Of a stretch of 64,000 nucleotides of DNA, positions 1,975 through 63,564 are shown in pieces (position 1 is the stretch's first letter; each line of letters opens with the position of its first letter). The translations under genes and the position numbers were made by a program. Location of the stretch: positions 6,039,319 to 6,103,318 of the forward strand of contig OZ251539.1 in the NCBI GenBank assembly GCA_965243135.1, in the 5' to 3' direction. The notes beneath the pieces were generated by a model, which searched no databases, was not told the origin of the DNA, and worked only from the letters and a program-made list of their open reading frames with translations. Origin of the DNA: Alphaproteobacteria bacterium (GTDB lineage: Bacteria > Pseudomonadota > Alphaproteobacteria > MPNO01 > UBA830).

Positions 1975-2559
1975 GTGAAGGCGCGTTCCCCGTCCGAAAG
2001 CTCCCACTACGTGAGCGCCGAATTCTATCGCGATCTGATCGCGAACTTTACCGGGTGGGCGACCGACGACGCCGAGGCGTCCGATTCCGGGCTTCGCGAT
2101 TCCTGCCGGCGGCTCCTCGAGAAGGAAGCCCGCCTGCTCGACGAAGCCCGCCACGAGGACTGGCTCGCCCTCTACGCCGACGAGTGCCTCTACTGGGTGC
2201 CGGCTTCCCCCGGCGGCGGCGACCCGCGAAAGGAAGTCGCCGTCGCCTTCGACGACCGGCGCCGTCTGGAGGACCGGATCTACCGGCTTCGCAGCGAGTA
2301 CGCCTGGTCGCAGCAGCCCGCGTCCCGCACCAGCCGGATCGTTTCCAACGTCGCCGCGTACCTTACCCGCGATGCCGACATCGTGATGGCGCGGTCGAAT
2401 TTCCTGACTTCGGAATTCCAGGACGGCGATTACCGCACGTGGGCGGGATGGTATGCGCACCGTCTGCGCCGACGGGCGGATTCCTGGGAAATCCTCGTCA
2501 AGCAGGTCAACCTCATCGACTGCGACCGGAATCTCCGCAATCCCAGCATAACGCTCTGA
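1975..2559 (+). CDS. Aromatic ring-hydroxylating oxygenase, beta subunit
   Basis: EARLLDE..W.ALY...YWVP, RLEDRIYRL and WSQQPASRT motifs; follows the alpha subunit. Confidence 0.9.
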   Translation: MKARSPSESSHYVSAEFYRDLIANFTGWATDDAEASDSGLRDSCRRLLEKEARLLDEARHEDWLALYADECLYWVPASPGGGDPRKEVAVAFDDRRRLEDRIYRLRSEYAWSQQPASRTSRIVSNVAAYLTRDADIVMARSNFLTSEFQDGDYRTWAGWYAHRLRRRADSWEILVKQVNLIDCDRNLRNPSITL

Positions 2560-2576
2560 AGCGAGCGGCGGCCGGA

Positions 2577-3029
2577 CTACGCCAACCGGTCGAGGTCCGC
2601 GAGCACCTGCGCCGGATGGTCCGCGGGTTTCACCTGCTCGTAAGCCGCGGCGACGCGGCCGTCCGGTCCGATAAGGATCGATTTGCGCGGCGCGCGCGGA
2701 CTGTCCGGCGCGGACACGCCGCAGGCCACGGAAACGGACCCGTCCTCGTCGCTCAGCAAATCGAAAGGGAAGGAGAATTTCTCTCGGAACGCCTTGTTGC
2801 TCGCCGGGCTGTCGTAGCTGACGCCGACGACGGAGGCGTTGCGCGTTTCGAAGTCCTGGATTCTGTCACGGAATCCTTTGCCTTCGATGGTTCATCCGGG
2901 CGTGTCGGCCTTTGGATACCACCAGAGCAGAACGTAACGGCCGGTGAAATCGTCCTTCTTCACCGTCGTTCCGTCCTGATTCGGAAGAGCGAAATCGGGC
3001 GCGTCGGCGCCCGTCGGGATCAACGCCAT
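2577..3029 (-). CDS. bcp: BCP/PrxQ-type peroxiredoxin, selenocysteine-containing (in-frame UGA at 2892-2894)
   Basis: MALIPTGADAPDFALPNQDG...WWYPKADTPG-[TGA]-TIEGKGFRD...VVGVSYD...FPFDLLSD...KPADHPAQVL in one frame of 151 codons; TGA replaces the peroxidatic Cys of YPKAxTPGCT. Confidence 0.88.
2848..2887 (-). promoter_or_regulatory. Candidate bacterial SECIS hairpin
   Basis: Minus strand just 3' of the UGA reads TCGAAG-GCAAA-GGATTC-[CGTGACA]-GAATCC-AGGA-CTTCGA, giving two perfect 6-bp stems and a G-containing apical loop. Confidence 0.75.
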
Positions 3030-3085
3030 GCGGGCATCTCCGTGCTGGGGAACGCGCTCGCGGCGCGTCCGGTTCTCGGGGCGGG

Positions 3086-3262
3086 TCAGAAGTAGTCGGG
3101 CGCGCTGCGCTTCCGGCATCTCAGGCAGAGGCGGTTGTGCCAGCCCTCGCTCATGAACTTTTCGCCGCAGGAGAGGCAGCTTCGCTCTCCGGGGACATTG
3201 TGCGCGGCCTTGTGGTCGTCTTCGACGAATTCATCGTCCTGCAGCATCGATGTTTCATTCAT
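3086..3262 (-). CDS. Small zinc-ribbon protein (58 aa)
   Basis: RSCLSCGEKFMSEGWHNRLCLRC has two CxxC pairs, resembling a small alphaproteobacterial protein family. Confidence 0.7.
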   Translation of the reverse strand: MNETSMLQDDEFVEDDHKAAHNVPGERSCLSCGEKFMSEGWHNRLCLRCRKRSAPDYF

Positions 3263-3340
3263 GCCCGTTGTCCCAATCTTATCGTTTGTTTCGTTGCCCC
3301 GGATCGTCCGAGGGCGCCGTGCGGTGTCGCCGCGCCTCCG

Positions 3341-3604
3341 CGCATCTCCCTTCGCCGAGCGCGCGGAGAGGATTATTTTTTCGGGACGCCCGCTCGAAAG
3401 CCTGCACCCCTTCCTCTTCCGCGCCGGAACGGTTTTCCACCGCAGCCTCGAAGACAGGTTACAGAAAACGCGGAGCGTGCGCAATCGCCCTGGGGGACGG
3501 CGCGAGCGGCCTTCGGCGGCGCCGTTTTCGCTCGAGCGGCGAGTCGACGGCTCCAGGTCGACGGGCGGGTCGGAGAGCGCGGCGTTCCGGCGCGTCGCGC
3601 TTCA
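3341..3604 (+). repeat. Imperfect direct repeat, copy 1
   Basis: Shares 'ttccgcgccggaacggttttccac' and 'gtcgacgggcg.gtcggagagcgcggcgt' with 4535-5122. Confidence 0.7.
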
Positions 3605-3734
3605 GGCTTGAACAGGCGGGGCGTTGCGCGATCATGCGTTGCAGGCGATGCTCATGGTCGCGCTGTCCGCTGGTTCGTTCGCCTGTCGTCAGCGCCTGAG
3701 TGCGTCATTCACGCGTTGCCAACAATGACGCAGA

Positions 3735-4496
3735 ATGGAGAGCATCATGCCCGGCATCGTCGATATCCTGCGGAACGATCCGGAACCGTTCCCCGAATGG
3801 TTGGCCGCCAGCCCGCCGCGCTTCGATCGCGAGAAATTCTTCGCCTGCCGTACCGTCTATTATCCGGGTAGCGGAGACGATGGCCAGCCAGTGAAGCTCT
3901 GCGCGTTGGCCCACGCCGCGCACGCGTTCCTCTATGTCGACCAGAGTGTGGAACGGGAAACGCTCGCCGAAACCCTGCGCAACCCGGAGAGGGGCCTTCG
4001 CGGCTATGCGGTCGTCCATCAGGAACAGCTGACGGAGGACAGGTTGCGGCCGGGCGGGTGGACGCCGCACGTTTCCCCGGAAGAGGCGCAGCGCTCCACC
4101 CGTTTCAAGGATAGCTTTGCAGTTCCGTTCGCATGGTTCGTTGCATTCGACCGGCAGGAGGGCTTCGGCGACGACCACGGGCCGGAGCGCCTCGCGATCC
4201 TGTTCGTCGGCGGCGACGGCGTCGCCAGCTACGATGCCCTCTATTGCCAAGAGGACGGTACGCCGCCGCCGTTCCTGGCGGTTATCCAGGACCATGGTTT
4301 CGGCGGCAGTTACACGAGCTTTGGCGATGGAGGGATTCTGGCGAGAATCGCCCGAGAGCGCCGGATTCTGCCAGCGTATCTGTTGGTCGCGAGAAACTCC
4401 AGACCGTGGTCAGGCTATGCGGACACCGGCGCTATCGCCGAACCTGGCGGTATGCATGCGCATCTGAGGCGCCTTTTCCGTCGCAATCCCCCATAG
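3735..4496 (+). CDS. Hypothetical protein
   Basis: 253 aa ORF with protein-like composition (YYPGSGDDGQPVK, QDHGFGG); no family recognised. Confidence 0.7.
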   Translation: MESIMPGIVDILRNDPEPFPEWLAASPPRFDREKFFACRTVYYPGSGDDGQPVKLCALAHAAHAFLYVDQSVERETLAETLRNPERGLRGYAVVHQEQLTEDRLRPGGWTPHVSPEEAQRSTRFKDSFAVPFAWFVAFDRQEGFGDDHGPERLAILFVGGDGVASYDALYCQEDGTPPPFLAVIQDHGFGGSYTSFGDGGILARIARERRILPAYLLVARNSRPWSGYADTGAIAEPGGMHAHLRRLFRRNPP

Positions 4497-4534
4497 CGGC
4501 CGGAATCGATCTTCGCCGGACAGCGTTGCGTTCC

Positions 4535-5122
4535 GCGTCTTTCCCTTCTCCGAGTTCGCAGAAGGATTGTTTCCGGGACGTCCGCTCGCAAGCCGACGCT
4601 CCCATTCCTTTTCCGCGCCGGAACGGTTTTCCACTGTGGCCTCGAAAAGGGCCCGCTATCAACTCGGGATGGGTTGGCCGGTGAGTCAGGGCGCTGGGGC
4701 GGCGGCGGCGAACGCCCTGACATAAGCGCACGCCAAGTGAGCGTATCGCGCCGCCGTCCGAACCTGCGTGGCCCGAGCAACTTTTCGATCGTCGGCAGGC
4801 TCTTGCCAAGAGCCTGCGCTCGCGAAACCAAGCTGTGCCGCAAGCCGTGGACGCGGATGTCGCCCGAACCGGCGCGCTGCGTCGCCGGGAGCGCTGCAGG
4901 TCGGCGAGATGGGCGCTTGGCTTCCTGTCGGAAATGACCCGAAGATTGTCCAGGTCGCGGGGTAGGGCGGTGAGCAACCTCGCCGCCGCGCGCGACAACG
5001 TTGCCATCGCCGGTCTTGTCGTCGGGCGATTCGCCCGCCTCCAGGTCCAAGTTCTCCTGACGAAGCGCGTCGACGGGCGCGTCGGAGAGCGCGGCGTCCC
5101 GTTTCCGGAGCGTCGCGCATCA
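4535..5122 (+). repeat. Imperfect direct repeat, copy 2, interrupted by an integrase remnant
   Basis: 4535-4646 aligns with 3341-3452, and ~5040-5122 aligns with ~3550-3604. Confidence 0.65.
4700..5010 (-). pseudogene. Tyrosine recombinase/integrase C-terminal remnant
   Basis: Spread over three frames: LSRAAARLLTALPRD...HLADLQR / DIRVHGLRHSLVSRAQALGKSLPTIEKLLG / TQVRTAARYAHLA (HxxR and catalytic Tyr boxes). Confidence 0.8.
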
Positions 5123-5148
5123 AACCCGAAGACGCCGCCGCCGAACGG

Positions 5149-5571
5149 CTAAAAGGATCGGGATCCCGTAATCGCGGCGATGGCGGCGGTGGCCACCTCG
5201 AGGTCCTGCTCGCCGGTGCCGGATCCCACGCCGACTCCCCCGATGCAATCGCCGTCGACGACGATGGGCAGCCCGCCGGGCAGGTTGATGCGCTCGCCGT
5301 CGGTGCCGACCGCGAGCTTCATGTCGATGCCTTCGGCGATTCCGCCGGTCGGCGCTCCGTAGCAGGCGGCCGTGCGCGCCTTTCTCAGCGAGGTCTGCAT
5401 GGACATGTGGAACGCGCCGTCCATGCGTGCGAACGCGAGCAGGTGGCCGCCCTCGTCGACTACCGAGATGCACTGCGGCTGCCCCATTGCGGCGGCCTTC
5501 GCGATCCCCGCGTGGAGCGCCTTGAGCGCGCCTTCATGCGTCAGTTTCAGTTTTCGCGCCGTTTCGCTCAT
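5149..5571 (-). CDS. GlcG/HbpS-family heme-binding protein
   Basis: ISVVDEGGHLLAFARMDGA, KARTA, LPGGLPI...IGGVGVGSG...D motifs. Confidence 0.9.
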   Translation of the reverse strand: MSETARKLKLTHEGALKALHAGIAKAAAMGQPQCISVVDEGGHLLAFARMDGAFHMSMQTSLRKARTAACYGAPTGGIAEGIDMKLAVGTDGERINLPGGLPIVVDGDCIGGVGVGSGTGEQDLEVATAAIAAITGSRSF

Positions 5572-5645
5572 CCGTCCTCTCCCTGTCCGGTCGGCTTCGC
5601 GCCGCCTCGTCTCGAATCGTCGGCAGTCTTCCGGCAAAGGCGCAA

Positions 5646-6878
5646 TCATGCAAGGCGCGGTTGCCGGCCGCCGGTGCGCAGCAGAAGCAGCGTCACAAGC
5701 CCGATGTTCAGAAAGTTCCAGGCGATGCCGTTAATGAACGCTGCCTGGTACGAAGCCGTGAGATCGTAGATCCAGCCCGATACCCAGCCGCCGAGCGCCA
5801 TGCCGACGATGGTCGCCATGATGAGGATTCCGACGCGCTCGCCGGCGACTCGCGCTGGCATGTATTCGCGGACGATGATCGCGTAGCTCGGAACGATCCC
5901 GCCCTGCGCGAGGCCGAACGCCAGCGAGACGACGTAGAGCGAGGTAAGGCCGTCGAACGGAAGGTACAGAAACAGTGCGACGCACTGCATCGCCGATCCG
6001 AGAAGCAGGGTCCTCGCGCCGCCGATCCGGTCGGCCAGAAGGCCCGAGACGATTCTGCTGACGGCGCCGCCCGCCAGCATCAGCGACAGCATCTCCGCGC
6101 CGCGGGCGACGCCGTAACCGAGGTCTCCGCAATAGGCGACGATATGCACCTGCGGCATCGACATCGCGACGCAACAGCCGATGCCCGCGATGGCGAGCAG
6201 AACGATCAGGCTCCGCTGGGAAAGCGCGACCGTCTTCAGGCCCGAAAGGCCGCCGCCTCCGGCGGCTGCGTGATCCTCCAGCGGCGGACGCCTGCGAAGA
6301 AGGAGGGCGAGCGGCACCATGGCGAGACAGATGATGCCGATGGCGACGTAGGCCGCCCGCCAGTCCGCGAAGTCGAGAACGAACCGGATGAACAGGGGCC
6401 AGACGACGCCCCCGAAATAGTTCCCGCAGGCGGTCAGGGCGACTGCGATCCCGCGGCGCTTGCGGAACCAGTGCGAGACGTCGGCGATCAGCGGTCCGAA
6501 CGTTCCGGCCGTTCCGATCCCGATAAGGATTCCCTGAATCAGCGCGAACTGCCAGATGGAATCCGCCATCGCCGCCAAAATGAAACCTGCGGCCAGGGCG
6601 AAAGCGGTGACTATCAGCGGAAGAACGATTCCAAGGCGGTCGACGTAGCGGCCGATGATGAGATTGCCGAAGGCGAAGCCGGCCATTGTCAACGTATAGG
6701 GAAGCGAGGCGCTTGATCGCTCGACGCCGAACTCGTTCTGGACCGCCGGCAGGACGACGACCACGGCCCAGAATCCGACGCTGCCGATCGTTCCCAAAAG
6801 CATCGATACGGCGAGGCGCAACCGGGCGTAACGCCCGTCCGGAGAACCGGGGCCGAGTCGGCGGGATGCCGCTGTCAC
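5646..6878 (-). CDS. MFS transporter
   Basis: About 12 hydrophobic segments; GRYVDRLG and GLLADRIG motif A. Confidence 0.9.
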   Translation of the reverse strand: MTAASRRLGPGSPDGRYARLRLAVSMLLGTIGSVGFWAVVVVLPAVQNEFGVERSSASLPYTLTMAGFAFGNLIIGRYVDRLGIVLPLIVTAFALAAGFILAAMADSIWQFALIQGILIGIGTAGTFGPLIADVSHWFRKRRGIAVALTACGNYFGGVVWPLFIRFVLDFADWRAAYVAIGIICLAMVPLALLLRRRPPLEDHAAAGGGGLSGLKTVALSQRSLIVLLAIAGIGCCVAMSMPQVHIVAYCGDLGYGVARGAEMLSLMLAGGAVSRIVSGLLADRIGGARTLLLGSAMQCVALFLYLPFDGLTSLYVVSLAFGLAQGGIVPSYAIIVREYMPARVAGERVGILIMATIVGMALGGWVSGWIYDLTASYQAAFINGIAWNFLNIGLVTLLLLRTGGRQPRLA

Positions 6879-55777: not shown

Positions 55778-58102
55778 ATGCTTTCGCCCAATCTGGAAAC
55801 ATGTCTGCGGCGCGCGCTCGGGGAAGCCGGGCGGCGCGGTCACGAATACGCCACGCTCGAGCATCTCCTGATGGCGATGACCGAGGACCAGGATGCGCTC
55901 GCCGTCCTCCAAGCCTGCGGGGTCGACGCGGACAAGCTGGCCGAAGACCTTCGGAAGCACCTCGACAACGAAATGTCCAGCCTCGCGGTCGAGGGAGGGG
56001 AGGATCCCAAACCGACGGCGAGCCTTCAGAGAGTGATGCAGCGGGCGGCCATCCACGTCCAGTCGTCCGGCCGTCAGGAGGTCACGGCGGCGAACGTGCT
56101 CGTCGCCATGTTCTCGGAGCGCGACAGCCACGCGATCTACTACCTGCAGCAACAGGACATGTCGCGCTTCGACGCGGTCAACTACATCAGCCACGGCATT
56201 TCCAAGGTGCACGGCCGATCCGAGCGGCCAGCCGCGCGCAGCGCCGAAGAGGACGGCGAGCGGGAGAACAAGAAGGCCGGCGAGGCGCTCGACGCCTATT
56301 GCGTCGACCTCAACCGGAAGGCCGCCGAGGGCAAGGTCGATCCGCTCATCGGGCGCGAAGCCGAAGTCGAGCGGACGATACAGGTGCTTTGCAGGCGGAC
56401 CAAGAACAATCCGCTGCTCGTCGGCGATTCGGGGGTCGGAAAGACGGCGATAGCGGAAGGACTCGCCCGTCAGATCCACAACCGCGAAGTTCCGGACGTG
56501 CTGTCCGGCGCCACGATCTTCGCGCTCGACATGGGCGCGCTGCTGGCCGGCACCCGCTATCGCGGGGACTTCGAGGAAAGGCTCAAGGCCGTCGTCGCGG
56601 AGATCGAGAACCGGGAGGGCGCGATCCTCTTCATCGACGAAATCCACACCGTGATCGGCGCCGGCGCCACGAGCGGCGGCTCGATGGACGCTTCCAATCT
56701 CCTCAAGCCGGCGCTCCAGAGCGGCGGCCTGCGCTGCATCGGCTCGACCACCTACAAGGAATACCGGTCGTATTTCGAGAAGGATCGCGCGCTGGCCCGC
56801 CGGTTCCAGAAGATCGACGTCAACGAACCTTCCGTCGAGGACGCCGTGAAGATACTGCGCGGCCTCAGCTCCTACTACGAGAGCCATCACCGCGTCAGAT
56901 ACACGGCGTCGGCGCTTCGCACGGCGGTCGAGCTCGCGTCGAGATACATCACCGACCGGAAGCTGCCGGACAAGGCGATCGACGTCATCGACGAGGTCGG
57001 GGCGGCGCAGATGCTGCTGCCGGAAAGCAGGCGCCGCAAGATCATCACCGTCAAGGATGTCGAGACCGTGGTCGCCAAGATCGCCCGCATACCGCCGAAG
57101 AGCGTTTCCCGATCGGACAAGGAAGCGCTGAAGAACCTGGAGCGCGATCTGAAGACGGTCGTGTTCGGCCAGGACAAGGCGATCGGGGCGCTGGCGTCGT
57201 CGATCAAGCTCGCCCGCGCGGGCTTGCGCGAACCGGAAAAGCCCATCGGCTGCTACCTGTTCTCGGGTCCGACCGGGGTGGGCAAGACGGAGGTGGCGCG
57301 CCAGCTCGCGATGACCCTGGGCATCGAGTTGGTCCGGTTCGACATGTCGGAATACATGGAGCGCCATTCGGTATCCCGCCTGATCGGGGCGCCGCCCGGC
57401 TACGTCGGCTTCGACCAGGGCGGGTTGATGACCGATGCGATCGACCAGCAGCCGCACGCCGTGATGCTGCTCGACGAGATCGAGAAAGCCCATCCCGACG
57501 TCTTCAACATCCTTCTCCAGATCATGGATCACGGGCGGCTGACGGATCACAACGGCAAGTCCGTGGATTTCCGGAACGTCGTCCTGATCATGACGACGAA
57601 CGCCGGCGCGGCGGAGATGGCCAAGCCGGCGATAGGCTTCGAGCGCACGGCGCGCGTGGGCGAGGACGAGGACGCCATCAAGCGCATGTTCACTCCGGAA
57701 TTCCGCAATCGGCTCGACGCGACCATCGCCTTTTCCAGTCTCGGCCGGGACGTTGTCCTGCGCGTGGTCGACAAGTTCATCATGCAGCTCGAGGCCCAGC
57801 TCGAAGATCGCAACGTGACCTTCGAACTGACCGACGCGGCCCGCGCCTGGCTAGCCCGCAAGGGGTACGACGAGGCCTACGGCGCGCGGCCCCTCGCCCG
57901 GGTCATCCAGGAGGAGATGAAGAAGCCTCTGGCGGACGAAATCCTGTTCGGCAAGTTGTCGAAGGGCGGGGTCGTGCAGGTCGACGTGGGCGGCGAAGAC
58001 GCGCTCAGCTTCGAGATTCAGGCGTCGCCCCCGAAAAAGTCGTCTCCGAAAACGAAGAGTCCCGACCGCGGCGACAAGGTCGGCGAACTGGTCGAGGGGT
58101 GA
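55778..58102 (+). CDS. clpA: ClpA ATP-dependent protease ATPase subunit
   Basis: Two AAA modules ([16 protein letters not shown]); no M-domain; follows clpS. Confidence 0.97.
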
Positions 58103-60058: not shown

Positions 60059-60523
60059 TCACGCGATCTCGAACGCCGCGTCGACCTCGACCGCGGCGCC
60101 CGCTGGCAGCGAGGCGACGGCGACGGCGAATCGCGCATGCTTGCCCCTGTCGTCGCCGAGCGCCCGCACCAGCAGATCGGATGCGCCGTTGACGACGGCG
60201 GGCGGCTCCGTGAAATCCGGCGTCGCATTGACGAAGCCGCCCAGTTTCACGGCTTTCGCGCGGTCCGCTCCGTCCCCGAGCGCCGCTACGAGCTGGGCGA
60301 GGATGTTGAGCCCGCAAAGACGGGCGGCGGCATAGCCCCGATCGACGGAAAGTCCGTCGCCCAGCTTGCCCACGATGCGCTCCTCGCTGGTGATGGAGAC
60401 CTGACCGGCGACGAAGAGCTGGTTTCCGCAGATTCGGAAGGGTACGTAATTGGCTGCCGGGAGCGGCGCAGTCGGCAGAGCCAGTCCCATCTCCCGCAGG
60501 CGTTGTTCGATGCGTCCGGTCAT
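60059..60523 (-). CDS. RidA/YjgF-family protein
   Basis: ANYVP, VVNGASDL, GKHARFAV...LP. Confidence 0.92.
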   Translation of the reverse strand: MTGRIEQRLREMGLALPTAPLPAANYVPFRICGNQLFVAGQVSITSEERIVGKLGDGLSVDRGYAAARLCGLNILAQLVAALGDGADRAKAVKLGGFVNATPDFTEPPAVVNGASDLLVRALGDDRGKHARFAVAVASLPAGAAVEVDAAFEIA

Positions 60524-60729
60524 AGCCCGATCCTCCTGTAGCGTCGGCCGAGCTTACCGATCCCGGGGCGATCCTTCCAGCGCGAGGCGTTTTGCGCCCT
60601 TTTCGCGCCTGCTTCCGGGTCCGCTCTCCGGCTGTCGCGGGCATGTTCGGCCGGAAGAGCGCCGGGGCGGGCGGCAATGGACCGGCAGTTTCGCTCCCCC
60701 ACCGCAAGCTCCGGGGGGCGCGGCGCGGC

Positions 60730-61068
60730 TCAGTGCAGCCTGGCGACGCCCGTCGCTTGCGACAGCAACTCCTCGCCGTCGTCGCTGTCGATCACGTGAT
60801 CGCCGAGCACGGCGAGACGGTCGGGATCGTCGATCGCGGCCAGCAGCGCCTCGAGGCGCGTCGCCGTGCCCGCACCGAACTTCCGCGCCGCCTGACGCAA
60901 CAAGATCGCCCGCTGTCGTTCCAGCCCCAGTTCCTTGCCTTCGGAGAGGCCCAGCTCCCTGCCCTCGGCCTTACCTTCGGAGAGGCCCAGCTCCTTGCCT
61001 TCGGCCCAGCCCCTGGCCCGACTCTCGTCGACAGCCTGATCCATCCGTTTGGCCAACAACGATCCCAT
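60730..61068 (-). CDS. Stand-alone Rpn C-terminal (RpnS-like) protein, distal cassette, 112 aa
   Basis: GGGGAG..ATG; MGSLLAKRMDQ...WAEG(xxxG)6 LERQR...ARLH; intact frame. Confidence 0.65.
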   Translation of the reverse strand: MGSLLAKRMDQAVDESRARGWAEGKELGLSEGKAEGRELGLSEGKELGLERQRAILLRQAARKFGAGTATRLEALLAAIDDPDRLAVLGDHVIDSDDGEELLSQATGVARLH

Positions 61069-61233
61069 CTCTTCCAACTCCCCTGTCTCCTCGAACGACT
61101 TCAGCTTCTTCAGCGTCTCGCCGGTCAACTGCCCGCTGCCCTCCGCCGCCTGACGCACCAATGCCGCAACCAGACCGCGAAGCTTCGCCTCCGGGCGTGA
61201 CCGCGCCGTAAGCTCCGATCGGCGAGGCGCGGC

Positions 61234-61632
61234 TCAGTGCAGCCTGGCGACGCCCGTCGCGCGCGACAGCAACTCCTCACCGTCGTCGCTGTCGATCACG
61301 TGGTCGCCAAGCACGGCAAGACGGTCGGGATCGTCGATCGCGGCCAGCAGCGCCTCGAGGCGCGTCGCCGTGTCCGCATCGAACTTCCGCGCCGCCAGAC
61401 GCAACAAGATCGCCCGCTGTCGTTCCAGCCCTTGCTCCTTGCCTTCGGTCAACCCCATCTCCCTGCCTTCGGAGAGGCCCATCTCCCTGCCTTCGGAGAG
61501 GCCCATCTCCCTGCCTTCGGAGAGGCCCAGTTCCCTGCCCTCGGTCAGCCCCAACTCCTTGCCCTCGGCCCAGCCCCTGGCCCGACTCTCGTCGACAGCC
61601 TGATCCATCCGTTTGGCCAACAACGATCCCAT
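61234..61632 (-). CDS. Stand-alone Rpn C-terminal (RpnS-like) protein, proximal cassette, 132 aa
   Basis: Same RBS and ATG; 11 tetrapeptide repeats; intact frame. Confidence 0.65.
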   Translation of the reverse strand: MGSLLAKRMDQAVDESRARGWAEGKELGLTEGRELGLSEGREMGLSEGREMGLSEGREMGLTEGKEQGLERQRAILLRLAARKFDADTATRLEALLAAIDDPDRLAVLGDHVIDSDDGEELLSRATGVARLH

Positions 61633-61797
61633 CTCTCCCAACTCCCCTGTCTCCTCGAACGACTTCAGCTTCTTCAGCGTCTCGCCGGTCACCTGCCCGC
61701 TGCCCTCCGCCGCCTGACGCACCAACGCCGCAACCAGACCGCGAAGCTTCGCCTCCGGGTGCGACCGCGCCGTAAGCTTCGAGGGGCGAGGCGCGGC

Positions 61798-62967
61798 TCA
61801 GTGCAGCCTGGCGACGCCCGTCGCGCGCGACAGCAACTCCTCACCGTCGTCGCTGTCGATCACGTGATCGCCGAGCACGGCAAGACGGTCGGGATCGTTG
61901 ATCGCGGCCAGCAGCGCCTCAAGGCGCGTCGCCGTGTCCGCACCGAACTTCCGCGCCGCCAGACGCAACAAGATCGCCCGCTGTCGTTCCAGCCCTTGCT
62001 CCTTGCCTTCGGTCAGCCCCATCTCCCTGCCTTCGGTCAGCCCCATCTCCCTGCCTTCGGAGAGGCCCAGCTCCTTGCCTTCGGAGAGGCCCATCTCCCT
62101 GCCTTCGGAGAGGCCCATCTCCCTGCCTTCGGTCAGCCCCATCTCCCTGCCTTCGGTCAGCCCCAACTCCTTGCCCTCGGCCCAGCCCCTGGCCCGACTC
62201 TCGTCGACAGCCTGATCCATCCGTTTGGCCAACAACGATCCCATCTCTCCCAACTCCCCTGTCTCCTCGAACGACTTCAGCTTCTTCAGCGTCTCGCCGG
62301 TCACCTGCCCGCTGCCCTCCGCCGCCTGACGCACCAACGCCGCAACCAGACCGCGAAGCTTCGCATCGGCCTCCGGGTCGGTCGCCTCCTGCAACGCCGA
62401 CAGTGCCGGCCACAAATCCTCCCACCGGCCTTGCTCGACCAGCGCCTGCGCGTACAGCACGTTGTCCAGCATCGCATCCTCGACGCCCACCCGGCGAAGG
62501 TCAAGCAGAAAGTAGCGCTGCTGCAGCTGGAACGGCTGAAGTTCCTCGTCGACCGGCCCGACCATCTCCTTCATTTCCCGCGGCGCCGACCACCGCCTCT
62601 TCCCGCTGTAAACCACCACCGGCAGCACCGGCGGCAGCTTCCCGCCGGGCAACCGCTTTTCCTCCTCCAGCTTCGTGTATATCTGCGCCGTGTACTTGAT
62701 CATGCGCAGCGGCATATTCTGGTCGACCGTCGACTGGAACTCCGTCAGGACGACGACGTAGAGTTCGCCGTCCCCCTCGCGGAAGTTCACGCGCCAGACC
62801 ATGTCGCTGCGCTGCTGTCCCAGCCGGGCGTCCACGAACTCCGTCGGCATCGTCTGCAGGGTGTCGAGGTCGAGGCGGCCGGCCAGTTCTTTCGAAACGA
62901 AGCCGCGCAGCAGGTCGCGGCACACCCGCGGATGGCTGAACAGGGACTTGTACTTGGCGTCGTCGTT
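61798..62967 (-). CDS. Rpn/YhgA-family recombination-promoting nuclease (PD-(D/E)xK)
   Basis: DAKYKSLFSHP, RSDMVWRV, EFQSTVD..MPLRM..Y, LPPVLPVVVYSG..W, xxEG repeats; no canonical start before the first motif, first GTG is at 62925. Confidence 0.88.
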   Translation of the reverse strand, partial: NDDAKYKSLFSHPRVCRDLLRGFVSKELAGRLDLDTLQTMPTEFVDARLGQQRSDMVWRVNFREGDGELYVVVLTEFQSTVDQNMPLRMIKYTAQIYTKLEEEKRLPGGKLPPVLPVVVYSGKRRWSAPREMKEMVGPVDEELQPFQLQQRYFLLDLRRVGVEDAMLDNVLYAQALVEQGRWEDLWPALSALQEATDPEADAKLRGLVAALVRQAAEGSGQVTGETLKKLKSFEETGELGEMGSLLAKRMDQAVDESRARGWAEGKELGLTEGREMGLTEGREMGLSEGREMGLSEGKELGLSEGREMGLTEGREMGLTEGKEQGLERQRAILLRLAARKFGADTATRLEALLAAINDPDRLAVLGDHVIDSDDGEELLSRATGVARLH

Positions 62968-63219
62968 CCGTCTCCTCTCCGGTCTCTGCGCCCCGGTCGG
63001 CGGGCCGCGTGCAGATAGTCAGCCTATAAGACGAACTTATAACATATTTATGACATGTTCAAGAGATCTGCTCGCGCTGCGCCGTTTTTGTCGGTTCGCC
63101 GACGCCGCGCGGACCGCTCCGCCCGCTCGTCGGCAAGCCCGCAAGGGCCGCGCGGACGCTGGACGGGGCAGGGGCGGTTTGCGATAGTGCGGCCGACCGT
63201 TTCCGTCCGGAGCTCCGCC

Positions 63220-63564
63220 ATGACCATCGGCACCAAACTCTACACAATGCTCAACGGGGAACTCGTGGGTTCCGATTCCCAAGGCAACCGCTATTACCGG
63301 TCTCGCCGGACAAGCGGGCGGGAGAGGAGATGGGTTCTCTATAGCGGCGCGGCCGAGGCGTCGCGAGTTCCGCCCGAATGGCATGCCTGGCTTCATCGCA
63401 CGACGGACGAGACGCCCGGCGCGGAACCTCGGCGGAACTGGCAGCGGGAGCACGCGTCCAATCCCACCGGAACGGATCGAGCGTACCGGCCGCCCGGCCA
63501 CTTGCTCGAAGGGGCCGAACGGGCGCCGGCCCGCGGCGACTACGAACCATGGCGGCCGGTCTGA
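63220..63564 (+). CDS. NADH:ubiquinone oxidoreductase subunit NDUFA12 homolog
   Basis: GELVGSD.QGNRYY, RRWVLY, VPPEWHAWLH, NPTGT, YEPWRP. Confidence 0.93.
   Translation: MTIGTKLYTMLNGELVGSDSQGNRYYRSRRTSGRERRWVLYSGAAEASRVPPEWHAWLHRTTDETPGAEPRRNWQREHASNPTGTDRAYRPPGHLLEGAERAPARGDYEPWRPV

Follow-up and report, generated by a model that had tools for sequence, protein, structure and literature searches.

Few toxin-antitoxin defence genes are as widespread as the rpn genes. Two questions stand open in the Rpn field as described by Zhong et al. (2023; PNAS 120:e2307382120, PMC10400941), namely why the tails of these proteins vary so fast and what separately encoded copies of the tails do. Both are raised by a locus in a 64,000-nucleotide stretch of alphaproteobacterial DNA (assembly GCA_965243135.1, contig OZ251539.1, positions 6,039,319 to 6,103,318; hereafter the window, to which short coordinates refer), where a long rpn frame, with a nuclease part (RpnL) and a small protein (RpnS) encoded inside its 3′ end, is followed by two further copies of that 3′ end. 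How did these spare tails arise, and what, if anything, keeps them? The answer that we consider probable is that this is an Rpn-type (PD-(D/E)XK, YhgA-like) toxin/intragenic-antitoxin gene whose 3′ part has been duplicated twice in tandem, and which has lost its start while the tail frames have been kept.

The array lies on the minus strand of the window. In what follows W1 denotes the tail inside the long rpn gene, and W2 and W3 the two tail-only copies (cassettes 2 and 3). Its parts, from 5′ to 3′, are these:

62962..62980, minus strand: Shine-Dalgarno (SD) sequence GGAGAGGAGA at 62980-62971 and the site of a 7-nt deletion (paralog alignment)
61798..62967 (1.17 kb), minus strand: rpnL frame, 389 codons from the conserved NDDAKYKSLF to the stop, no canonical start
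61798..62244, minus strand: RpnS-1, intragenic small open reading frame (ORF) of 148 aa with 15 four-residue units; tandem repeat at 61999-62189, period 24, 7.9 copies
61750..61797, minus strand: spacer 1, the start of the ancestral 3′ untranslated region (UTR) joined to gene-internal sequence (alignment and comparison with paralog 3′ UTRs)
61234..61749, minus strand: cassette 2, with the RpnS-2 ORF at 61234-61632 (132 aa, 11 units) and a tandem repeat at 61435-61568
61186..61233, minus strand: spacer 2, a copy of spacer 1 that differs at 5 of 48 positions
60730..61185, minus strand: cassette 3, with the RpnS-3 ORF at 60730-61068 (112 aa, 6 units) and a tandem repeat at 60933-61006

The ORF list, a repeat finder and a three-way alignment agree on one long rpn frame followed by two in-frame tail-only copies of its last ~0.5 kb, with stops at 61800-61798, 61236-61234 and 60732-60730, all in one frame. 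The repeat finder returned two repeat families, of 300 and 272 nt, with three copies each and start-to-start spacings of 612/564 and 564/504 nt. In the three-way alignment the tail-only unit starts at CCCGGAGGC-GAAGCTTCGCGG (anchors 62361, 61749, and 61185) and extends past the stop by 48 nt; both cassettes begin 48 nt past the preceding stop, on the same strand. Per 390 coding positions compared outside the repeat region, W1 and W2 differ at 5, W1 and W3 at 13, and W2 and W3 at 14, and each copy contains 24-nt tandem repeats whose number differs between copies. The gene and cassette 2 are 100% identical over 201 nt upstream of the repeats, with no difference from the parent gene in the 117 nt preceding the cassette's ATG, and their last 189 nt show 5 differences. 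Read-through of the in-frame TGA stops was considered and set aside: units whose lengths divide by 3 would share a frame in any case, and no other observation spoke for it. Much of what a first-pass annotation of the window had read from the letters is borne out here, including the internal ATGs at 62244, 61632, and 61068 with predicted proteins of 148, 132, and 112 aa, the frame-intact units starting ~125 nt upstream of these ATGs, and the substitutions among the copies (GEMG/EEMG, QVTG/QLTG, RLAARK/RQAARK, GADT/DADT/GAGT, and IND/IDD). Its picture of a full rpn gene followed by two 3′-end copies stands for the copies but not for the full gene, whose ATG has been deleted.

The long frame matches the Pfam family PF04754 (Transposase_31) with 96.9 bits (cut-off 21) and an E-value of 1.6e-27 over profile positions 17-170 of 203, covering residues 2-161 of the protein that a GTG start would give; among NCBIfam models, those for RpnA and the Rpn family match below threshold only. 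Equivalents of RpnA D11, D63, E82, Q84, and R94 are all present in an alignment with E. coli RpnE and a homolog from another alphaproteobacterial locus (L033, described below), in which these residues, D3, D55, E76, Q78, and R88 in window numbering, are invariant. In RpnA, mutation of D11, D63, E82, or Q84 kills activity, and the D11A protein is dead (Kingston, 2017; PMC5350276).

What the long frame lacks is a beginning. The conserved N-terminus opens with the codon at position 62967, which is not a start codon. The ancestral start region in five close paralogs is GGAGGAGACGGAACG-ATG-AACGACGAC, and in the paralog alignment all five of these other copies read GGAGGAGACGGAACGATGAACGAC where the window is without GAACGAT; the rpnL ATG was removed by a 7-nt deletion in which one copy of the direct repeat GAACGAT/GAACGAC was lost. 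No ATG, GTG, or TTG occurs between the upstream stop at 63021-63019 and the GTG at 62925, and this GTG, the first in-frame candidate start, lies 14 codons in, without an SD and downstream of the D11 equivalent. As it stands, the rpn frame of the window is not a translatable full-length gene. Both versions of the start region occur in contigs from four public runs (assembled contigs rather than raw reads): run X1 has a 3363-nt contig that matches the unique flank (62955-63100) with 0 mismatches and contains 7 additional letters at 62962, yielding the ATG version, and a flank-anchored contig of run X3 ends at 62962 without the 7 letters. It follows that strains are polymorphic for the deletion, unless, as is less likely, the consensus is in error. 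Compared with its nearest paralog, the nuclease domain has 7 non-synonymous and 13 synonymous changes (ratio 0.17), which indicates purifying selection, and because this selection is still visible the loss of the start appears recent. Since the deletion took the ATG of the nuclease, the locus is probably toxin-null in this assembly and would make small proteins only.

In the tails, by comparison with paralogs, the elements expected for translation recur. The sequence GGGGAG..ATG is kept in 9/9 tails of the window subfamily, with equivalent motifs in more distant paralogs, and a GGAG/AGGA-type motif precedes the conserved ATG in all 21 tails printed from this genome and in all five at L033. The motif lies 9-11 nt upstream of the ATG in most tails and only 3 nt upstream in the two cassettes of a second array in the same genome (locus K, below). 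Motif and ATG persist across five amino-acid contexts (G-E-L, G-D-L, E-G-S, K-G-V, and E-G-D). Four independent duplications have the 5′ edge of their unit ~125, 30, 62, and 24 nt ahead of the internal ATG; since each of these edges falls upstream of the SD, the SD has always been retained. These patterns support the proposal, already made in the first-pass annotation, that each duplicated unit corresponds to a putative RpnS expression unit.

The repeats start ~20 residues after the Met, the 24-nt DNA repeat corresponds to two 4-aa units, and the lengths of the nine subfamily tails are all multiples of 4. The RpnS forms are predicted to have a long helix, which bears the 4-residue repeats (15, 11, and 6 units), and after it a small bundle of helices. 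An AlphaFold2 model of the 100-aa tail of a paralog (predicted local distance difference test score, pLDDT, 83.6) has a helix at 4-51 and then three short helices, and its repeat-bearing long helix agrees with the published description of RpnS; the 132-aa form was modeled poorly in the repeat region (pLDDT 65.5). When the last 67 residues were used in a language-model feature search, DUF4351 made up 19 of the 30 nearest clusters (score 0.91), which we treat as a lead only.

The origin of the array can be followed at its junctions. Six loci of the close subfamily share flanks of ~95 nt 5′ and ~150-165 nt 3′ of the gene, the corresponding unit in the window being 60584-63070. The paralog 3′ UTR has GCGCCCGG-CGGCGGAGCGAAGCTGCCGGTC, resembling the gene-internal GACCCGG-AGGCCGATGCGAAGCTTCGCGGTC, and comparison with the paralog 3′ UTRs shows the array junction to be a hybrid of a 3′ UTR stretch and a gene-internal stretch. 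Because the junction is hybrid, recombination between short imperfect direct repeats is indicated. Each duplication would have recombined a gene-internal stretch of ~35 nt (CCCGGAGGC..GCGAAGCTTCGCGGTC) with the similar stretch in the gene's own 3′ UTR, which would explain why the copied unit extends from ~125 nt ahead of the internal start site to a point ~48 nt beyond the stop.

Paralogs in the same genome give the array its context. The genome contains many of them, with 41 rpn matches at E ≤ 0.001. The nine tails of the window subfamily are 96, 100, 104, 108, 112, 132, 148, 164, and 172 aa long, all different, and outside the repeats they are 87-100% identical. Two close paralogs are intact, A1 at 165.7 kb (172-aa tail) and B at 1.112 Mb (100-aa tail), and 5/7 nuclease-bearing copies of the subfamily are dead. 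Four paralogs, A2 (167200-168293), C (2076054-2077095), D (4060019-4061057), and E (5641988-5643012), have one common 5-nt frameshift deletion in the nuclease domain and keep intact small-protein frames of differing lengths; given the same frameshift in all four, a dead-nuclease, tail-intact version must have been copied to four loci. An earlier suggestion, taken from identities, that A2 is a hybrid with a foreign N-domain was dropped, the DNA alignment showing a 5′-truncated, multiply frameshifted copy. A degraded rpn N-domain was also seen by tblastn at 2741998-2742438 of this genome, near 2.742-2.743 Mb.

The distribution of damage in the subfamily bears on selection. Nine frame-breaking events can be reconstructed, all in the part that encodes RpnL only, and 0 fall in the nine RpnS frames. 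C, D, and E share with A2 one 5-nt deletion, and E shares with it a second of 5 nt; A2 has in addition four more deletions, a nonsense codon, and a 5′ truncation; the ninth event is the start deletion of the window. The chance of such a 9-to-0 split ranges from P 0.008 to 0.12, according to how the repeat region, copy numbers, and target sizes are counted. Between W2 and W3 there are 6.5 non-synonymous differences over ~291 sites and 7.5 synonymous differences over ~99 (ratio ~0.29, Fisher p ~0.03). The same two copies differ at 5/48 positions of the spacer vs 14/390 of the coding part (p 0.046). Together, these three sequence-based signals point weakly to selection that keeps the spare tails.

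Tail-only copies were sought elsewhere, as the first-pass annotation had proposed, and rows with two spares were found at two further places. At locus K of the same genome (2731355-2733398), a full ankyrin-Rpn gene is followed by two tail-only copies, which begin ~30 nt before their ATG and 57 nt after the preceding stop. The ankyrin-Rpn subfamily, a distant one with N-terminal ankyrin repeats, is represented in this genome by K and by loci L (5976816-5981422), M (4881718-4883226), and N (2157800-2159998). Its tails are 72, 72, 86, 93, 107, and 121 aa long, with an outlier of 103, in steps of 7, and because these lengths differ by multiples of 7 its repeat appears to be a heptad (DARAEAS-type). 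Locus L has a tail-only copy ~2.5 kb upstream which, at 72 aa, has the same length as the tail of its gene. A tail-alignment search of other species' genomes gave five loci, one of which, L033, has rpn with two tail-only copies (unrelated alphaproteobacterial metagenome-assembled genome (MAG) chromosome OZ243958.1, locus coordinates 2138-5835). At L033 one tail-only copy comes first, then a full rpn with two tail-only copies behind it, and then another full rpn, the RGE[EKR] repeats numbering 3, 11, 5, 4, and 9 in that order. The other four loci of that search have single or tandem full rpn genes, and orphan tails without an N-domain within 4 kb were seen in two further genomes. Three or four full-length rpn genes stand in tandem at L040 (G304:C1:366000-374000) and at G002:C2:1147916-1151488; such rows are of the kind that Zhong et al. 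(2023; PMC10400941) call rpn gene arrays. For the window subfamily itself, no ortholog was found in 30 related genomes (best identity 39%), the tail profile matched 4 of 400 other genomes sampled from the class, and 253 pattern stretches from Joint Genome Institute (JGI) metagenome contigs, searched with the tail alignment, included none encoding a relative.

How would such a locus work? A single transcript from a conserved element upstream of the gene would read all three small ORFs, and one transcript is probable because the copies are separated only by a hairpin without a U tract (in spacer 1, an 8-bp GC hairpin immediately 3′ of the stop, with a fold of -17.8 kcal/mol). In E. coli, RpnL is blocked only by an RpnS with the same number of 4-aa repeats, and being one repeat off abolishes inhibition (Zhong et al., 2023; PMC10400941). 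By analogy, each small protein here would bind an Rpn tail equal to it in length and keep the nuclease inactive. Under this same-length rule only the intragenic 148-aa form would fit its own long protein and, since nine tails have nine lengths, the spare tails would match neither their own gene nor any paralog. The two spare forms would then be orphan tails kept by selection, and they may also supply homology for recombination that gives the nuclease another tail length.

Other explanations have to be weighed against this one. It is hardly credible that the array is an assembly artefact in which a single tail was expanded by mis-assembled 24-nt repeats. The region is indeed repetitive, and the short-read contigs of the public runs break inside it, but the copies differ by point substitutions outside the repeats as well as in repeat number and spacers, and the same layout occurs at locus K and in another complete MAG chromosome. 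Moreover, a contig of run X4, an independent metagenome run from an unrelated study, bridges the stop-to-next-copy junction (61723-61819) with 4 mismatches and a 6-nt insertion, in agreement with the first-pass annotation, which had argued from the divergence of the copies against an assembly duplicate. We consider it unlikely that the spare tails are neutral debris, thrown up by unequal recombination while a repeat-rich rpn locus decayed and so young that their frames have not yet been broken. Such debris would be in keeping with the lost start of the long gene, the many dead nucleases of the subfamily, the degradation of three other tail-only pieces in the genome, and a divergence between copies of only 1.3-3.6%, so that few mutations had time to occur. 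It fits poorly with a W2-W3 non-synonymous to synonymous ratio of ~0.3, with a spacer that evolves faster than the coding part, with nine frame-breaking events in nuclease parts vs none in nine tails, and with the independent occurrence of the two-spare layout, SD and ATG always kept, at locus K and L033. The equivalent downstream RpnSs copy of E. coli is, furthermore, translated (Zhong et al., 2023; PMC10400941).

Two further rivals assign the spare tails a different task. Conceivably, albeit at low probability, the array is a reservoir of cassettes in which recombination within the ~200 nt that are identical upstream of the repeats would give the nuclease a tail of different length and reset pairing specificity, much as orphan C-terminal cassettes serve contact-dependent growth inhibition (CDI)/Rhs loci. 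The nine lengths of the nine tails would suit it, as would the contrast between the identical segment upstream of the repeats in gene and cassette 2 and the differences in their last 189 nt; a recent duplication explains this identity pattern equally well. Zhong et al. (2023; PMC10400941) report that rpnSs can be lost when the N-terminal domain becomes fused to the rpnSs region. A low-depth X4 contig that joins 60919 to 62185 would correspond to a collapsed single-tail form, but the joint has a depth of 5.5 and a 30-nt side, lies within 24-nt repeats that short-tailed paralogs carry, and may be paralog-derived. This joint and another at 61561>60974 (X1) lie inside repeats common to paralogs and were not used as evidence. 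The swapped tails that the first-pass annotation had suggested looking for did not appear, in that no swapped allele anchored in unique flanks was present among the public contigs. Less probable again is the idea, also raised in that annotation, that the three small proteins jointly neutralize this toxin or paralogous toxins elsewhere in the genome. The intact paralogs A1 and B would need antitoxins, and the non-repeat parts of the tails are similar enough across the subfamily (87-100%) to invite the idea; yet each intact paralog already encodes its own intragenic RpnS, and tails of 148, 132, and 112 aa here face tails of 172 aa in A1 and 100 aa in B, in the light of the E. coli finding that a one-repeat difference abolishes inhibition (PMC10400941). 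The idea is weakened accordingly by nine tails of nine lengths.

The reading that we prefer, a twice-duplicated Rpn gene with its start lost and its tail frames kept, also has evidence against it. If the E. coli rule holds here, the length mismatch would leave the spare tails without an evident partner. The signals of selection come from very small counts, and gene conversion among the nine tails could mimic constraint. Decayed tail-only copies do exist elsewhere in the genome, at 5981051-5981422 (Met now Lys), 4054139, and 3032336, and in view of these three degraded pieces not every spare tail is kept. The start-codon deletion may be a variant among strains or an error in the consensus, as public contigs carry either form. 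The small proteins are known here from their sequence, and sequence searches did not link them to E. coli RpnS or to DUF4351: hhalign gave the tail a probability of 2% against E. coli ypaA; the DUF4351 (PF14261) hidden Markov model (HMM) had no match at E ≤ 1 in the six-frame genome; and Pfam DUF4351 was absent from the three window proteins (E ≤ 0.1) and from 15 aligned tails (E ≤ 10). Structure searches were no more informative, since Foldseek with two models against the PDB found no match at E ≤ 0.001, a wide VIA-align search gave only generic helical bundles with Z < 8, and neither returned the RpnA-S crystal structure, a three-helix bundle dimer; sequence and profile searches of the PDB with the tails gave nothing relevant. 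A consensus promoter scan of 60500-63200 returned 0 sites, on account of which the upstream element is called a candidate promoter.

The remaining features concern the edges of the array and its neighbors, the latter named by eye from their translations:

63025..63062, minus strand: candidate promoter/operator, with TTGAAC at 63062-63057, TATAAG at 63041-63036, and TATAAG-N5-CTTATA at 63041-63025; kept in 6/6 close paralogs aligned
60584..60729, minus strand: 3′ flank common to dispersed paralogs and end of the copied rpn unit (3′ flank alignments of W3, A1, A2, B, C, D, and E)
60059-60523, minus strand: RidA-like protein
63196-63564, plus strand: NDUFA12-like protein
55778-58102, plus strand: ClpA-like ATPase

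TATAAG-N5-CTTATA is a perfect 6-bp inverted repeat that overlaps the -10-like hexamer and is kept in all six close rpn paralogs, and it could be an operator for autoregulation by a helix-turn-helix-like small protein. The 3′ flank has a 15-nt deletion relative to the paralogs and ends ~60 nt before the ATG of the RidA-like gene (60523). In two of three same-genus genomes the RidA-like and NDUFA12-like genes are adjacent and divergent, with gaps of 171 and 264 nt vs 2672 nt here, and because nothing separates the neighbors in those two species the array looks inserted at this site. Among the neighbors, read by eye from translations without a family search, no defence genes were recognizable beside the array, and PADLOC had no model matching the locus.

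For the questions raised by this locus, the genome offers a compact natural experiment, with nine tails of nine lengths and two independent arrays of two spares. Nuclease parts decay or lose their start, every tail frame of the subfamily stays open, and a version with a frameshift but an intact tail has been copied to four loci. Expressed spare tails would mean that Rpn antitoxin modules are kept without a matching toxin, which would suggest either a looser cross-protection than the same-length rule of E. coli or a function of RpnS alone. If they are silent, the locus would record how tail length changes by duplication and fusion. A bolder idea, which we offer tentatively and rate as improbable, is that rows of length-variant RpnS form a heritable library of mutually orthogonal tails, in which a one-step tail exchange, by recombination in the identical stretch ahead of the repeats, would bring a new pairing specificity and escape whatever phage factor targets the old pair, displaced tails would persist as expressed orphan antitoxins, and selection would keep all tail lengths different; dead-nuclease copies would then spread since the small protein alone would be useful. 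Were this so, it would amount to a cassette-exchange diversification system for a toxin-antitoxin defence gene, extending to the heptad-repeat, ankyrin-fused Rpn subfamily. Whether expressed or silent, the spare tails extend a known arrangement and reveal no new kind of system.

In that known arrangement, RpnS is encoded either inside an rpn gene or separately from it (Zhong et al., 2023; PMC10400941). The intragenic RpnL/RpnS pairs (RpnA-D of E. coli, and RpnP2; Kingston, 2017; Zhong et al., 2023) resemble the window gene in their N-terminal Transposase_31/PD-(D/E)XK domain with equivalents of D11, D63, E82, and Q84, in a conserved internal start, in a hypervariable 4-residue repeat early in the small protein within a predicted long first helix, and in their many copies per genome with tandem duplications. 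Unlike in those pairs, the ATG of the long protein is deleted here, any nuclease activity, toxicity, neutralization, or phage defence of the window locus is putative, and the locus lies between housekeeping genes rather than in a recognizable defence island. Zhong et al. (2023; PMC10400941) name stand-alone small DUF4351 (PF14261) proteins as RpnS that certain species encode separately; like the window tails they are small, helical, and correspond to Rpn C-termini, whereas the Pfam HMM does not match the window tails.

Free-standing RpnS copies downstream of their own rpn gene are likewise of an already described kind (RpnSs), contrary to the first-pass annotation, which knew of no description of free-standing, arrayed cassettes. 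In the text of Zhong et al. (2023; PMC10400941), ypaA (rpnESs) after rpnE and a second rpnCS (rpnCSs) after rpnC have independent origins from their own upstream genes and are expressed. In E. coli K-12 the anatomy of a single spare can be seen directly: ypaA begins 12 nt after the rpnE stop, its homology starts 15 nt before the internal ATG (AAAAGGAGAGATTA-ATG), and it has one extra 12-nt repeat (4 aa) compared with the RpnE tail. As in the window, RpnE-S-s (ypaA) and RpnC-S-s are copies that stand directly after the parent rpn on the same strand and derive from the parent's own tail; as in the cassettes, the 5′ edge of ypaA falls shortly ahead of the internal SD and ATG, and its count of short repeats is not that of the parent tail. 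K-12 RpnE is annotated as inactive, which parallels the start-less gene of the window. The duplicated unit is larger in the window, where it takes in ~125 nt of coding sequence ahead of the start and a UTR portion of 48 nt, vs 15 nt and 12 nt in ypaA, and the window has a 24-nt DNA repeat, a high-GC alphaproteobacterial host, and a tail without detectable similarity to ypaA.

Downstream orphan C-terminal toxin/immunity cassettes that keep homology to the main gene, and so allow tail replacement by recombination, are also found at cdiA/rhs genes. In CDI/Rhs systems the swapped tail is the toxin and the cassette brings an immunity gene, whereas in the window it is the nuclease that stays constant, the tail being the putative antitoxin/pairing domain. 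Arrays of more than one RpnSs did not turn up in the literature, where we found nothing beyond Zhong et al. (2023), its commentary, and Kingston (2017), and the supplements of Zhong et al. (Fig. S1B, S3, and Dataset S1) may hold some. At the megablast level the ypaA unit is present in 5420 of 5426 complete E. coli genomes, at 1-2 places in each and never at 3. The window has two spares in tandem where E. coli has one at most, and it is these two spare copies, together with the recurrence of the two-spare layout, that are new here.

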